From the sequence record OW991345: a DNA stretch of 64,000 bases. One strand, written 5' to 3'. Origin of the DNA: Escherichia phage vB_Eco_AL25. The notes beneath the pieces are model-generated. The model saw only the letters and a program-made list of their open reading frames with translations. It was not told the DNA's origin and ran no database searches. Below are positions 11,601-39,405 of the stretch, piece by piece. The position numbers and the translations under genes are program-made. Numbering within the stretch: the first letter of the stretch is position 1; each line of letters begins with the position of its first letter.

Positions 11601-13169
11601 ACGAATAGTAACTTCTGCTTCTGGTGCTTGAGCCATAGCTTCTTGTGCTGCCTGTGCAACATAGTCATCAGCAACAGGAGATGCTTCTTCATTCTGCTTC
11701 ATAACCCGTTCACCACGAGCTACCAAAGTGTTCTTAATAGGAGAAACAACCTTACCTGCTACACTACCAGCAGCTTTAACACCAGCTATTGTGGTACGCA
11801 ATACAGGAGCAGTTGCAGCACCTGCTAAACGAGCAGCACCAGCCGGAGCCTGTACAACACCAGCAGAACCAAAGCCATAAAGAGCACCTAAACCAGCTTG
11901 TGTACCGACACCTTTAAGCAGGTCTTGGTTCTTATCAATGTTTTGTTGCTGTGCAATATTCTGAGCCAGTTGGCCTGTAGCACCCTGAACACCTTCTTCC
12001 ACTGTTTCACGGGCAAGGTTCATACCTACAGCACCTAAAGAACCAGCACGGAAAGGAGCCATCTCAAAACGAGATACTAGAGGACCAGTTGCAGCAGCAA
12101 TAGGTAATTGAATAGCAGCAGCAGTAAGACCAGTTTCAGATGCAGTTTGACGACGAGCCTGTTCAGGGGACATACCATCTTTAATATGTTGCTGATAAAC
12201 AGGAGACTTCTCTAAGTCTTTAAGACTCATCTTCATAATTTCGTCAGCAGTTTGTTGGTATGCACCACCAGCTTCCATTGCACCAACACCAATCATACCT
12301 GGTGCAGCTCTGCCTACAGTAGAGGCAATACGAGCCAGTGACTGAGTACCAGTACCTGCATCAATAGCACCAGCCAATGCAGCACTACGAAGAGTATTTA
12401 CTGGAACAACTGCTTTACCCAGTAAAGATGCACCCCTTAATACAGGACCAGCACCTAATAGAGAACCTACCCCTTCCGCTAACCCATCAGAAATAATAGA
12501 GTCAGTTTGAGCAGCGTTCTCAATTGAACCTACAAAATCACGTCCAAATTTAGATAAGGAAGCTACTATGTCATTAGTGCCTTCTTTCTTATCTGTTTGA
12601 TACTGACGTTCACTCTCTACTTCACTCATTAAGTTACGAGCAGCAAAGAGCTTACGTTTATCTTGTAATGCTTGGCTTTGGGTAGCATGGACAGCATCAT
12701 TAAACTTACTCAATTGTTGAGCAATGACAGCACCTGCATCATCGTTGAGTAAGCCTGCCCCAAGAGCACCAATGCCCCCAAGGGTATTAACAAAACCAAG
12801 ACCAACACCAGTAGCAATATCCCCCAGTTCTTCCCCAGGAGTTCTTGTAGTAACTGAATCATTAAATACCTGGTTCCCTGCATCAGCACGAGCGTTGATA
12901 AGTTGTAAGCCTTGCTCAACCCCATACTTATTCATGATTTGCATTGGAGTCAGATTCATGAAATCTGATTGCACTGTCCCTGGTTCAAATGCATTAGCCC
13001 CAACATTACCAGTACGGGCAGCTTGCATTTGATAAGCAGCATCAGGAGAAACAAGAGGAGTAGTGACACCTTGTTCAGCTTTCTTCTGGGCGGTTGCAGT
13101 AGAGACGTCAACTTGCTTTGCATTGGTTACGCTGTCTGCGAACCCAGCCAGTCTATCAAATACTGACAT
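2667..13169 (-). CDS. virion-encapsidated RNA polymerase (vRNAP, N4 gp50-like), 3500 aa from the second ATG
   Basis: Giant ORF; second ATG has RBS AGGAAA 6 nt upstream and gives exactly 3500 aa; T7-like motif-A-like block EADGVTNGPINAMM; position as last late gene. Confidence 0.85.
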   Translation of the reverse strand: MSVFDRLAGFADSVTNAKQVDVSTATAQKKAEQGVTTPLVSPDAAYQMQAARTGNVGANAFEPGTVQSDFMNLTPMQIMNKYGVEQGLQLINARADAGNQVFNDSVTTRTPGEELGDIATGVGLGFVNTLGGIGALGAGLLNDDAGAVIAQQLSKFNDAVHATQSQALQDKRKLFAARNLMSEVESERQYQTDKKEGTNDIVASLSKFGRDFVGSIENAAQTDSIISDGLAEGVGSLLGAGPVLRGASLLGKAVVPVNTLRSAALAGAIDAGTGTQSLARIASTVGRAAPGMIGVGAMEAGGAYQQTADEIMKMSLKDLEKSPVYQQHIKDGMSPEQARRQTASETGLTAAAIQLPIAAATGPLVSRFEMAPFRAGSLGAVGMNLARETVEEGVQGATGQLAQNIAQQQNIDKNQDLLKGVGTQAGLGALYGFGSAGVVQAPAGAARLAGAATAPVLRTTIAGVKAAGSVAGKVVSPIKNTLVARGERVMKQNEEASPVADDYVAQAAQEAMAQAPEAEVTIRDAVEATDATPEQKVAAHQYVSDLMNATRFNPENYQEAPEHIRNAVAGSTDQVQVIQKLADLVNTLDESNPQALMEAASYMYDAVSEFEQFINRDPAALDSIPKDSPAIELLNRYTNLTANIQNTPKVIGALNVINRMINESAQNGSLDVTEESSPQEMQNVALAAEVAPEKLNPESVNVVLKHAADGRIKLNNHQIAALQNAAAILKGAREYDAEAARLGLRPQDIVSKQIKTDESRTQEGQYSALQHANRIRSAYNSGNFELASAYLNDFMQFAQHMQNKVGALNEHLVTGNADKNKSVHYQALTADREWVRSRTGLGVNPYDTKSVKFAQQVALEAKTVADIANALASAYPELKVSHIKVTPLDSRLNAPAAEVVKAFRQGNRDVASSQQKADSVNQVKETPVTKQEPVTSTVQTKTPVSEPVKTEPTTKESRPQAIKEPVSQSEKRDVNLTNEDTIKQPTESVKETETSAKESTVTEELREGIDAVYPSLVGTADSKAEGIKNYFKLSFTLPEEQKSRTVGSEAPLKEVAQALSSRARYELFTEKEVANPAFNGEVIKRYKELMEHGEGIAGILRSRLAKFLNTKDVGKRFAQGTEANRWVGGKLLNIVEQDGDTFKYNEQLLQTAVLAGLQWRLTATSNTAIKDAKDVAAITGIDQALLPEGLVEQFDTGMTLTEAVSSLAQKIESYWGLSRNPNAPLGYTKGIPTAMAAEILAAFVESTDVVENIVDMSEIDPDNKKTIGLYTITELDSFDPINSFPTAIEEAVLVNPTEKMFFGDDIPPVANTQLRNPAVRNTPEQKAALKAEQATEFYVHTPMVQFYETLGKDRILELMGAGTLNKELLNDNHAKSLEGKNRSVEDSYNQLFSVIEQVRAQSEDISTVPIHYAYNMTRVGRMQMLGKYNPQSAKLVREAILPTKATLDLSNQNNKDFSAFQLGLAQALDIKVHTMTRGVMSDELTKLLEGNLKPAIDMMVEFNTTGSLPENAVDVLNTALGDRKSFVALMALMEYSRYLVAEDKSAFVTPLYVEADGVTNGPINAMMLMTGGLFTPDWIRNIAKGGLFIGSPNKTMNEHRSTADNNDLYQASTNALMESLGKLRSNYASNMPIQSQIDSLLSLMDLFLPDINLGENGALELKRGIAKNPLTITIYGSGARGIAGKLVSSVTDAIYERMSDVLKARAKDPNISAAMAMFGKQAASEAHAEELLARFLKDMETLTSTVPVKRKGVLELQSTGAGAKGKINPKTYTIKGEQLKALQENMLHFFVEPLRNGITQTVGESLVYSTEQLQKATQIQSVVLEDMFKQRVQEKLAEKAKDPTWKKGDFLTQKELNDIQASLNNLAPMIETGSQTFYIAGSENAEVANQVLATNLDDRMRVPMSIYAPAQAGVAGIPFMTIGTGDGMMMQTLSTMRGAPKNTLKIFDGMNIGLNDITDASRKANEAVYTSWQGNPIKNVYESYAKFMKNVDFSKLSPEALEAIGKSALEYDQRENATVDDIANAASLIERNLRNIALGVDIRHKVLDKVNLSIDQMAAVGAPYQNNGKIDLSNMTPEQQADELNKLFREELEARKQKVAKAKAEVKEETVSEKEPVNPDFGIVGREHKASGVRILSATAIRNLAKISNLPSTQAATLAEIQKSLAAKDYKIIYGTPTQVAEYARQKNVTELTSQEMEEAQAGNIYGWTNFDDKTIYLVSPSMETLIHELVHASTFEEVYSFYQGNEVSPTSKQAIENLEGLMEQFRSLDISKDSPEMREAYADAIATIEGHLSNGFVDPAISKAAALNEFMAWGLANRALAAKQKRTSSLVQMVKDVYQAIKKLIWGRKQAPALGEDMFSNLLFNSAILMRSQPTTQAVAKDGTLFHSKAYGNNERLSQLNQTFDKLVTDYLRTDPVTEVERRGNVANALMSATRLVRDVQSRGFNMTAQEQSVFQMVTAALATEAAIDPHAMARAQELYTHVMKHLTVEHFMADPDSTNPADRYYAQQKYDTISGANLVEVDAKGRTSLLPTFLGLAMVNEELRSIIKEMPVPKADKKLGNDVDTLLTNAGTQVMESLNRRMAGDQKATNVQDSIDALSETIMAAALKRESFYDAVATPTGNFIDRANQYVTDSIERLSETVIEKADKVIANPSNVAAKGVAHLAKLTAAIASEKQGEIVAQGVMTAMNQGKVWQPFHDLVNDIVGRTKTNANVYDLIKLVKSQISQDRQQFREHLPTVIAGKFSRKLTDTEWSAMHTGLGKTDLAVLRETMSMAEIRDLLSSSKKVKDEISTLEKEIQNQAGRNWNLVQKKSKQLAQYMITGEVGNNLLRNAHAISRLLGERITNSPVADVAAIDKLTTLYSLELMNKSDRDLLSELAQSEVEGMEFSIAYMVGQRTEEMRKAKGDNRTLLNHFKGYIPVENQQGVNLIIADDKEFAKLNSQSFTRIGTYQGSTGFRTGSKGYYFSPVAARAPYSQGILQNVRNTAGGVDIGTGFTLGTMVAGRITDKPTVERITKALAKGERGREPLMPIYNNKGQVVAYEQSVDPNMLKHLNQDNHFAKMVGVWRGRQVEEAKAQRFNDILIEQLYAMYEKDIKDSSANKSQYVNLLGKIDDPVLADAINLMNIETRRKAEELFGKDELWVRRDMLNDALGYRAASIGDVWTGNSRWSPSTLDTVKKMFLGAFGNKAYHVVMNAENTIQNLVKDAKTVIVVKSVVVPAVNFLANIYQMIGRGVPVKDIAVNIPRKTSEINQYIKSRLRQIDAEAELRAAEGNPNLVRKLKTEIQSITDSHRRMSIWPLIEAGEFSSIADAGISRDDLLVAEGKIHEYMEKLANKLPEKVRNAGRYALIAKDTALFQGIQKTVEYSDFIAKAIIYDDLVKRKKKSSSEALGQVTEEFINYDRLPGRFRGYMESMGLMWFYNFKIRSIKVAMSMIRNNPVHSLIATVVPAPAMFGNVGLPIQDNMLTMLAEGRLDYSLGFGQGLRAPTLNPWFNLTH

Positions 13170-13230
13170 AGTAGGTTTCCTATACAAACTTATATCTATT
13201 AGAAATCACACTATACCTAGTGTAAGGACG

Positions 13231-20009: not shown

Positions 20010-21215
20010 TTACAGCGGAGCTACAGTTTTAATAAGAGCCAGACGTTCTGGACGTTTAACCAGAATACCGTAGTACCATTTGATGCTGGAGAAGCCAGTT
20101 TCACCATATGGGTCATTACGGTCAGCAGTTTCTTTACCAGGCATCTTAGTCATAACGGTAAATTTAAGTGACTTACCGTCAGTCTGGAAGCCAATGGAGG
20201 TAAAGGAATCATCACCTACTACCAGCATTGGGTAAACGTCATAGTGCTCTTGGCCAGATACCATAGAGGTACGGTAACCAGGGTTAGCTCCAGTAGCCTG
20301 TGCACCAGCACCCGCCCAGTGCAGCATCTCTGGAACCTGAATGATACGGAACTTATCAATAGAACCGACTTCACCATTCATGATAGTACCTGCATCAGCA
20401 TAGTGCTGAGTTTCGATAAAGGCTTTATTACCGAACAGGTCTTTCATTGCTTTCAGTTCTGGAACCAGTTCAGAACCTACATACATGACACGAGTAGCAC
20501 CGATGACTTTAGTATCAATCATACGGGAACCAGTGATGATGGTAGTCTGAGTAGGAGTACGGTTCTCCGTCAGAATCTGGTCAAGACGCATCAGGTTCTT
20601 ATAAGAAACTACAGACGGGGTAGAACCTTCACCAGTGATGGTGGAATCAGAAGTAGCAGCACCAGCATACAGAACAGTACCAGCAGCAGCCAGCAGGTCT
20701 TTTTGCAGTACAGCTTCAGTAATCTGAGTAGCACCATTCATCAGTTCACGGGACAGGTGTTCCATCAGGCCATCATCAGAATCGAAGTCAATAGATTCCT
20801 GAGTGAACTCATAGAAGAAGCCAAACTTGTGAATAGAGCCTTCACGAGCAATACGAGTAAAACCAACACGGTTAACTCGACCACCGTTTTCAGTCAGTAG
20901 AGGCAGTTTGGAAGTAATGTTACCGATGTCTTTGCTGGAACCATACAGGTTACCGTTAACGATAGTAGCACCACTTGCATCAATACCCTGGTCATTGATG
21001 TTACGGTCATCCAGCAGAGGAACATATTCATATACCTTGATGGTCTTACCGTAATGCTTCGGCATGTTAGTTACAGAGGCCAGTGGCATGAAGTACTGCT
21101 CTTTACGGGCAGTGATGATTGCTTTCTTCAGCCAGAAGAAGGTTTGCATCTGGTCAGAGTTAGCACCATCAATACTAGATTTCTGACCGTCAATAGGAGC
21201 GTTATAGTTCAACAT
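20010..21215 (-). CDS. major capsid protein (N4 gp56-like), 401 aa
   Basis: 401 aa, same as recalled N4 MCP; lies between scaffold-like and terminator; strong terminator downstream. Confidence 0.75.
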
Positions 21216-38220: not shown

Positions 38221-38379
38221 ATAGGAAGTCTATTAGATAGATACCCTATAATTTTTTCTTAGTGAAAATAGTCATAGTTACTTATGAGTTCAGTATTTGG
38301 TGGGGCTACACCCCTTACACCATAAGCACCCCCCCCCCTGTCTTTACTAGTGTAGCCTTAGCCTACCCCACCTTGTACA

Positions 38380-38412
38380 CGTTACACGTTGCTTCGCAAC
38401 TTATGGACATGT
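38380..38412 (+). promoter_or_regulatory. N4 vRNAP-type hairpin promoter (5-bp stem, 3-nt loop; template loop GAA)
   Basis: GTTGC-TTC-GCAAC followed by TTATGGAC; same architecture as the other two hairpins. Confidence 0.6.
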
Positions 38413-38451
38413 TGTCCGTATCTTATCAATCAACTATTGGAGACTAATACT

Positions 38452-38778
38452 ATGACTACTCAGGCTAACGTTCGTATGACTGTAGGAACTCTGTTGGGTA
38501 CTGTTAACGAAGCAGCAACTACTGTAGCTGATACATTCGGTACTGCTACTAAAGCAGTAGGTATGCTTAATCGTTATGTAACTAAACAAGCAGATAAACA
38601 AATCATTCGTGACAAATTAGAAATGCATGAGTTTACCAATAAACTTATTGAAGAAACTGCAATGCAAGAAGCTATTCGTCAGAAACAAATCTTAGACTTC
38701 TGCAAAGATGAACAAAACAAAGAATTGTTCTCTAATGCCTATGACCGTCTTAGCAAAATCTTAGCAGACTCTAAATAA
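38452..38778 (+). CDS. early hypothetical protein, 108 aa
   Basis: RBS GGAGA; internal ATG chosen because the longer ORF begins inside the promoter hairpin. Confidence 0.55.
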   Translation: MTTQANVRMTVGTLLGTVNEAATTVADTFGTATKAVGMLNRYVTKQADKQIIRDKLEMHEFTNKLIEETAMQEAIRQKQILDFCKDEQNKELFSNAYDRLSKILADSK

Positions 38779-38849
38779 CAACAAACAAATGGAGGCTCCT
38801 CGGAGTCTCCTTTTACATAGAACCGATAGTTCAATAACTATCTACTTTA

Positions 38850-38880
38850 AAGATAAGAAGCTCCGCTTCTTTTGGATGAA
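38850..38880 (+). promoter_or_regulatory. N4 vRNAP-type hairpin promoter, P2-like (7-bp stem, 3-nt loop; template reads AAGAAGCGGAGCTTCTT)
   Basis: AAGAAGC-TCC-GCTTCTT followed by TTGGATG; the reverse complement matches the N4 P2 core as I recall it. Confidence 0.7.
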
Positions 38881-38991
38881 GTAATGCATCCAATCCTGTA
38901 TGAAATCTTAACCTTTTGTCTGGGATTACTTACCGACAAAGTAGTCTCAACTAATCAAAATCAACTATCTGGAGAGTACAAAATGGCTATC

Positions 38992-39369
38992 ACTACTTTT
39001 GCTAAAACCTTTGGTCAGGCTTCTACTAAAACCGAATCCAACAATGGTTCTCGTCCGAAAGCTCAGTTCTGGATTAACGTTGGCTATGTAGCTAATGAAG
39101 GCACTGAAGATGAACGTTTCATCTCTCTGCCTACTGGTATTCCACTGGATACTCAGGAGCATCTGCCAACCAATTCCTCTAACGAAGACTTCCGTGCAAT
39201 GCGTTGTGCACAGAACGATTTGTTAGACCAACTGATGGAATTTGCTAAGACTCTGGAACCAGGTCAGGAAGGAGTTATCTCACTGCAAGTTCAACTTCGT
39301 CGAGTTAAAGAAGAAGCTCCTGCTATCTCAGCAAGTGAGAATAAATATGCTCGTAAACTGACTTTTTAA
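38992..39369 (+). CDS. early hypothetical protein, 125 aa
   Basis: RBS GGAGAG 6 nt upstream of ATG; the TTG start at 38872 in the ORF track lies inside the promoter. Confidence 0.55.
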
Positions 39370-39377
39370 TCTCTATA

Positions 39378-39405
39378 GGACTACCTTCGGGTAGTCCTTT
39401 TTAAT
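39378..39405 (+). terminator. rho-independent terminator
   Basis: GGACTACC-TTCG-GGTAGTCC followed by TTTTT. Confidence 0.65.

Follow-up and report, generated by a model that had tools for sequence, protein, structure and literature searches.

A template-strand hairpin upstream of gp2 in Escherichia phage vB_Eco_AL25 as the probable counterpart of coliphage N4 early promoter P2

A short inverted repeat between genes gp1 and gp2 of Escherichia phage vB_Eco_AL25 raises the question of whether it is an early promoter of the coliphage N4 type, a transcription terminator, a DNA signal of the genome end, or a repeat without function. It was analyzed within a stretch of 64,000 nucleotides of sequence record OW991345 (the window, to which all positions refer unless N4 is named). 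The + strand at 38855-38871, equivalent to N4 557-573, reads AAGAAGC TCC GCTTCTT, a perfect 7-bp stem with a 3-nt loop, and is followed by TTGGATG at 38872-38878, just as the initial annotation of this DNA had described; its reverse complement is CATCCAAAAGAAGCGGAGCTTCTT. On the template (−) strand, which would carry the functional form, the hairpin is 5'-AAGAAGC GGA GCTTCTT-3', with the arms of the stem at −19 to −13 and −9 to −3, and transcription from it is directed rightward, along the + strand. When the template strand was folded as single-stranded DNA, exactly this hairpin was obtained (−5.3 kcal/mol; z = −3.1), an energy equaled by 2 of 200 shuffled sequences.

The hairpin by itself proves little, since structures of this size are common in the window: 17 perfect hairpins with a 7-bp stem and a 3-nt loop were counted, while dinucleotide shuffles contained 5.0 ± 2.4. 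This abundance is what speaks for a chance inverted repeat without function. Their roughly threefold excess over shuffled sequence extends across the window (for example, at 46322, 56370, and 25562), and several GC-rich members of the class (GCCCTCC-TAT-GGAGGGC, CATCCCC-CAA-GGGGATG) may be terminators. Neither the heptamer GCTYCGC alone (4 occurrences in the window, 4.0 expected) nor the loose pattern GAAGCNNNGCTTC with one mismatch (3 versus 1.4 expected) was enriched, and a literature-based definition was used instead of the latter. This full promoter definition, which calls for GCTYCGC, a stem no shorter than 5 bp, and a G located 3' of the loop centre by eleven bases, returned three sites in the 64-kb window, compared with 0.017 per shuffled window, and none of 300 shuffles reached three. 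All three are intergenic, lie on the + strand in the early region, and are referred to below as P1, P2, and P3. A fourth GCTYCGC, at 20015 on the (−) strand, was rejected, having a 3-bp stem within a late-gene coding region. The count of three sites that fit the full definition argues strongly against the chance reading. A scan for sigma-70 promoters returned none at the P2 site.

P1 (38388-38400; non-template GTTGC-TTC-GCAAC; loop centre 38394) lies upstream of gp1, with a predicted +1 G at 38405, and P3 (42844-42860; non-template AAGCTGC-TCC-GCAGCTT; loop centre 42852) lies upstream of the two RNAPII subunit genes, with a predicted +1 G at 42863; both have their hairpin on the (−) template, as does P2 (AAGAAGC-TCC-GCTTCTT; loop centre 38863; predicted +1 38874), which lies upstream of gp2. 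The GCTYCGC heptamer of P2 recurs in P1 and P3, as do −8G, the loop of 3 nt whose middle template base is a purine, and a GG at +1/+2 that lies eleven bases past the centre of the loop. P1 differs from P2 in its 5-bp stem, its TTC loop (template −11A), and its TTAT spacer (template AATA), whereas P3 differs in its stem sequence, AAGCTGC, and keeps the spacer and GG of P2. Stem bases outside the heptamer thus vary among the three, as expected where pairing alone matters.

The genomic setting was then compared with that of N4. The window is approximately 98 to 99% identical to coliphage N4 and represents an Enquatrovirus genome in circularly permuted form; a query of 801 bases spanning the hairpin (38600-39400) is 98.5% identical to N4 302-1102. 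With the hairpin lying between gp1 and gp2, this bears out the N4-like assignment made in the initial annotation. Several Enquatrovirus isolates match the same query at 99 to 99.5%, and the phage belongs to an isolate lineage other than N4, the nearest records being vB_Eco_SPSP, Jura, and the BEU phages. N4 positions are converted to window positions by adding 38298, and N4 32-4499 is colinear with the window, with 75 substitutions and no indels. The right end of the N4 record (70153) corresponds to 38297, and the N4 left end follows directly (38297/38299). Because the N4 right end abuts the N4 left end inside the window, the window derives from a circularly permuted assembly, in which, judging by this junction, the terminal repeat is collapsed. 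A run of approximately 10 C's (~38330-38339), 30 to 40 bp inside the left end, is one base off the N4 run in length. The left end of N4 is the end injected first (PMC4496689), and the physical DNA ends of the present phage would, by extension from N4, lie at the corresponding place; the P2 hairpin is approximately 560 bp from the position matching the left end of the N4 record.

At the level of individual bases, P2 of the window and P2 of N4 are identical from −19 to about +90 and agree in orientation and in their position between gp1 and gp2. The sole difference nearby is at 38854 (−20), a T in the window and a G in N4, outside the 7-bp stem. Three sources underlie this comparison: the genome record of N4, a printed oligonucleotide (PMC13492108), and the text of a review (PMC4496689). 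The template strand of the window shares the 19-mer CCAAAAGAAGCGGAGCTTC, running from 38875 down to 38857 (−17 to +2), with the printed P2 hairpin oligonucleotide at 19 of 19 positions. The resemblance to the N4 P2 core stated in the initial annotation therefore holds against both the genome record and the oligonucleotide. A full-text literature search with the 17-mer of the hairpin returned no matching paper.

The determinants of N4 early promoters have been reviewed in detail (PMC4496689). The region from −17 to +1 is conserved and contains a GC-rich heptamer centred at −11 with inverted repeats on either side; the virion RNA polymerase (vRNAP) recognizes −11A/G, −10G, −8G, and +1C (PMC4496689). 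Extrusion needs a 3'G:C5' loop-closing pair plus a loop 3'A and 5'G, −10G and −12A form a sheared pair, K267/K268 melt two basal pairs of the 7-bp P2 stem, and four A's act as a ruler that sets the start eight nucleotides past −8 (PMC4496689). All determinants listed there were found in place at the P2 site of the window, where the (−) strand reads, 3' to 5' from 38855, TTCTTCG(−13) A(−12) G(−11) G(−10) C(−9) G(−8) AAG AAAA C(+1) C(+2). The template stem and loop fall within the 5 to 7 bp and 3 nt of this promoter type. The GC-rich heptamer occupies 38860-38866 (non-template GCTCCGC; template, (−) strand, 3'-CGAGGCG-5') and includes the −13G:−9C closing pair, −12A, −11G at 38863, −10G, and −8G, with the template reading 3'-G A G G C-5' from −13 to −9. 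The purine that the initial annotation had placed at the loop centre is present, the template loop being 5'-GGA-3' with a central G complementary to the C at 38863; −8G follows from the non-template C at 38866.

The predicted start was placed by the same published geometry (PMC4496689), with the spacer TTTT and the start GG at 38870-38875 on the + strand. The template A's at −4 to −1 correspond to 38870-38873, the first two lying inside the 7-bp stem, and they are followed by the template C at 38874, so that the RNA would start with GG. The predicted +1 is therefore the G at 38874, 11 nt from the loop centre at 38863, a distance at which P1 and P3 also have GG. Initiation at 38874 in the present phage is carried over from N4; the P2 RNA would begin 5'-GGAUGAAG... 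at this position and run rightward through gp2. Both its location near the left end and its orientation toward the early genes, with P2 pointing at gp2, are those of an N4 early promoter.

Comparison with more distant relatives provided an independent view of the site. In distant Enquatrovirinae (KP8, PhAPEC7, Moo19, 24-32N, and IMG/VR contigs), the alignment to the window begins exactly at the promoter, and these phages keep GCTCCGC and the GG start with stems such as GAAGC/GCTTC, GACGC/GCGTC, and GGCTGC/GCAGCC. Pattern scans of IMG/VR yielded mostly chance matches in GC-rich contigs, and only contigs encoding gp2 homologues were used. Across 14 orthologous Enquatrovirinae promoters the heptamer and the GG start are invariant, while the stem outside the heptamer varies with pairing kept: 95% of the cells of the promoter helix are paired in the 14-sequence alignment, and both partners are replaced at three of the seven stem positions (A-T/C-G/T-A, among others). 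In a partner-slid control on the same alignment, pairing fell to 31 to 45% for two helices combined. The orthologous site in the KP8 GenBank record is annotated as an early promoter. Conservation and covariation refute the chance reading, as does the identity of the site to an experimentally characterized promoter, and we regard a functionless repeat as having a negligible probability.

Far more distant Schitoviridae carry 3-nt-loop hairpins with a T-rich spacer and GG upstream of their gp2 homologues, with other loops (TGC, TAC, GTA). These agree with the published description of Pseudomonas phage LUZ7 and related phages, the early hairpin promoters of LUZ7 having been mapped by ONT-cappable-seq (PMC9163698). 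The early promoters of KP8 and LUZ7 resemble P2 in their 3-nt loop, their preference for a G start, and their position upstream of the gene for the ssDNA-binding RNAPII cofactor; LUZ7 differs in having stems of 4 bp or more and a start 13 to 14 nt away from the centre of the hairpin (PMC9163698).

A further reading takes the hairpin to act mainly at the RNA level, as an intrinsic terminator or attenuator for P1 transcripts that pass through gp1. The gp1 stop codon precedes it, and on the + strand it is followed by TTTT (UUUU in RNA), so that it could in principle add some terminator activity against P1 read-through. A terminator scan, however, does not call it: with only three G-C pairs and four T's (tail TTTTGGAT), it falls short of the GC-rich stem and at least five T's of a Rho-independent terminator. 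A far better terminator is located 45 nt upstream, at 38791-38810 on the + strand (GGAGGCTCC TCGG AGTCTCC followed by TTTT; eight pairs, GC-rich), where a terminator is also annotated in related records. The invariant loop and heptamer at a fixed distance from GG are the signature of a promoter rather than a terminator, and P3 has the same design without a preceding terminator role. That the P2 hairpin is mainly a terminator is thus very improbable. Strong intrinsic terminators lie directly after both gp1 (38791-38810) and gp2 (39377-39398), so that P1-gp1 and P2-gp2 look like separate short early transcription units.

The short distance of approximately 560 bp to the genome end, together with a second inverted repeat adjoining P2, could also be taken to mean that the cruciform, instead of or besides promoting transcription, takes part in another DNA transaction at this end of the genome, for example the initiation of replication, packaging, or the arrest of ejection. 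A hairpin of the same design is also found 4.5 kb into the genome, at P3, and the published biochemistry fully accounts for the hairpin; neither this analysis nor the literature searched gave any pointer to such a role. We assign this possibility hardly any weight.

A promoter of this type needs its cognate polymerase, and the window encodes one with the promoter-contact residues. The orthologue of N4 gp50, the vRNAP gene, occupies 2667-13187 on the (−) strand as a 3506-codon open reading frame from a TTG at 13187 (the N4-numbered start would be 13169). Over residues 1-1106, its polymerase domain (6861-10178) can be aligned along the entire length with the N4 mini-vRNAP chains of PDB crystal structures and corresponds to residues 998-2103 of full-length cryo-EM chains. 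All nine promoter-contact residues described in PMC4496689 are kept: K114, R119, W129, K267, K268, K849, K850, D901, and R904.

By the mechanism described in the N4 literature, the left end would enter the cell and be supercoiled by host DNA gyrase, and the inverted repeat would extrude as a cruciform. E. coli SSB would then melt the non-template hairpin and spare the unusually stable template-strand hairpin, with its 5'-GGA-3' loop, C:G closing pair, and sheared −10G:−12A. The injected virion RNA polymerase would bind this template hairpin through W129/R119 to −11G, K114 to −10G, and D901/R904 to −9C/−10G/−8G, with K267/K268 melting the two basal pairs, and RNA synthesis would start with GTP, opposite the C of the template that lies eleven bases from the centre of the loop. 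For the identical N4 sequence, extrusion that depends on supercoiling and SSB has been shown, as has rifampicin-resistant initiation at +1 both in vivo and in vitro (PMC4496689). As far as can be judged from sequence, every requirement of the N4-type mechanism is found here and its parts are present. The vRNAP belongs to the same family as the T7-type single-subunit RNA polymerases and makes analogous use of a specificity loop, an intercalating hairpin, and an upstream recognition element (PMC4496689); T7 promoters, in contrast, are double-stranded and 23 bp long, whereas P2 is a hairpin of the single-stranded template and depends on gyrase and host SSB.

Collectively, sequence identity, geometry, uniqueness in the genome, covariation, and a vRNAP with intact contact residues form the direct basis of the identification, and leave us with little doubt that the hairpin and the early promoter P2 of coliphage N4 are orthologous, with vRNAP as the polymerase that would read it. 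The element is already known, being the crystallized P2 sequence itself in a near-identical relative of N4. The proposal in the initial annotation that the site defines an early transcription start is thus supported for P2 but is not new, as this start had been mapped in N4 decades earlier.

The gene served by P2, gp2, encodes the ssDNA-binding cofactor of N4 RNAPII, the middle polymerase, and spans 38884-39369 on the + strand. Its annotated start in the N4 record, the ATG at N4 586 (38884 in the window), lies 10 nt after the predicted +1 and is without a Shine-Dalgarno sequence. This in-frame ATG had not been mentioned in the initial annotation, which placed the start codon at 38992, approximately 110 nt from the hairpin. 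The ATG concerned is at 38983-38985, 9 nt from the position given, and is the second in-frame ATG of gp2, with a strong Shine-Dalgarno sequence, GGAGAG, eight bases upstream. It lies 112 nt past the end of the stem and 109 nt past the predicted +1, so that the distance of about 110 nt holds for this Shine-Dalgarno-preceded ATG and not for the annotated gp2 start at 38884.

Conservation was found at both start codons. A 19-base block around the ATG at 38983 shows almost no nucleotide variation across all the Enquatrovirinae examined. All 10 distinct Enquatrovirinae versions keep the upstream in-frame part of the gp2 reading frame open, together with a conserved ATG or GTG, while the other two frames contain one to three stops. 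A start at 38884 would add to gp2 a conserved, hydrophobic N-terminal extension of 33 residues, and homology to distant gp2 proteins starts at approximately residue 30 to 36 of this long form. Both forms of gp2, from 38884 and from 38983, may be made, the upstream frame being open in all of these versions; the hydrophobic N terminus would fit the reported membrane association of gp2.

The predicted P2 transcript would also carry two structured elements. The first, outside the promoter proper, is a 5'-terminal RNA hairpin at 38874-38891 on the + strand (GGAUG N8 CAUCC), in which the five bases to be transcribed first, GGAUG, form pairs with CAUCC (38887-38891). Its arms are invariant in 14 orthologues and covary to GGATTC/GAATCC (GGAUUC/GAAUCC in RNA) in the versions L164 and L172. 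The predicted P1 transcript also opens with a 5-bp hairpin at +1 (38405-38417; GGACA-UGU-UGUCC), and that of P3 is without one. Such a hairpin may stabilize the 5' end of the transcript.

The second element is a leader stem-loop at 38921-38949 on the + strand, with an 11-bp stem and ACCGAC(A) in the apical loop, just preceded by a U-rich block, CCTTTTGTC, at 38912-38920. A covariance model of this stem-loop found one copy in the window (42 bits) and one copy upstream of the gp2 homologue in each of 21 related loci among the 37 searched, with no match in the 16 more distant loci. It occurs in two subfamilies of Schitoviridae, including Achromobacter phages of another subfamily in which gp2 is only approximately 50% identical. 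Pair counts from the alignment based on the covariance model were moderately above controls (76% paired; 3 of 500 shuffles reached the covariation score), and only moderately so because this alignment mixes two loop registers of 6 and 7 nt; they were therefore replaced by per-sequence folding. By this approach, each of the 13 distinct versions places ACCGAC in its apical loop, with folding energies of −9 to −19 kcal/mol. Stem length ranges from 8 to 16 bp among the versions (~11 bp in N4), and the apical helix appears as CTT/AAG, CTC/GAG, CCTC/GAGG, GTCC/GGAC, TTCG/CGAA, TTCA/TGAA, and GCT/AGC. Six versions contain G.U pairs, which in five lineages make the + strand 3 to 11 kcal/mol more stable than its complement. 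Furthermore, the reading frame of ACCGAC relative to the gp2 ATG differs in Axy10, L174, and L190, which indicates that conservation acts on the nucleotide sequence, in its RNA sense.

No Rfam family matches the gp2 leader region, and neither leader hairpin (38874-38891 or 38921-38949) was found described in the papers searched. We tentatively raise the possibility, which we hold to be somewhat less probable than the contrary, that the P2 RNA carries a previously undescribed cis-regulatory leader for gp2, made up of the 5'-terminal hairpin and the ACCGAC stem-loop. Our best guess at its function is transcript stabilization together with translational control of gp2; as gp2 is an ssDNA-binding protein, such control may be analogous to the autoregulation of T4 gp32. 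The leader may also govern the choice between the long form (38884) and the short form (38983) of gp2.

Several other observations were made on the leader sequence. The leader block was considered as a repeated middle-promoter-like motif and rejected, as CYTTTGTYTGGG is not enriched in the window (13 occurrences versus 18 expected, with at most two mismatches). A weak extra match to the leader profile was obtained at 48163-48242, a region upstream of gp24 that overlaps the end of gp23 (nhmmer E = 0.006) and shares the blocks TCTTTTGTTTGGGTTTA and CTGGAGAGTA-AAATGGCT with the gp2 leader; this may reflect a duplicated module for translation initiation or regulation, or may be due to chance. In the version L171 (IMG/VR 3300045988_012650), a 33-nt in-frame insertion between the ACCGAC stem-loop and the Shine-Dalgarno sequence contains two mini-hairpins with GAA loops (GTCGC-GAA-GCGAC and CCATAC-GAA-GTATGG), a loop type of vRNAP promoters, on the opposite strand.

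While these results add nothing to knowledge of vRNAP promoters, they are of value for annotation. The P2 hairpin fixes the start of the early gp2 transcript, with its predicted +1 at 38874, and also confirms the Enquatrovirus assignment; together, P1, P2, and P3 show where the early region lies and where, in this circularly permuted assembly, the physical left end is likely to be. The structured leader downstream of P2 and the start codon of gp2 are the points that might deserve attention.
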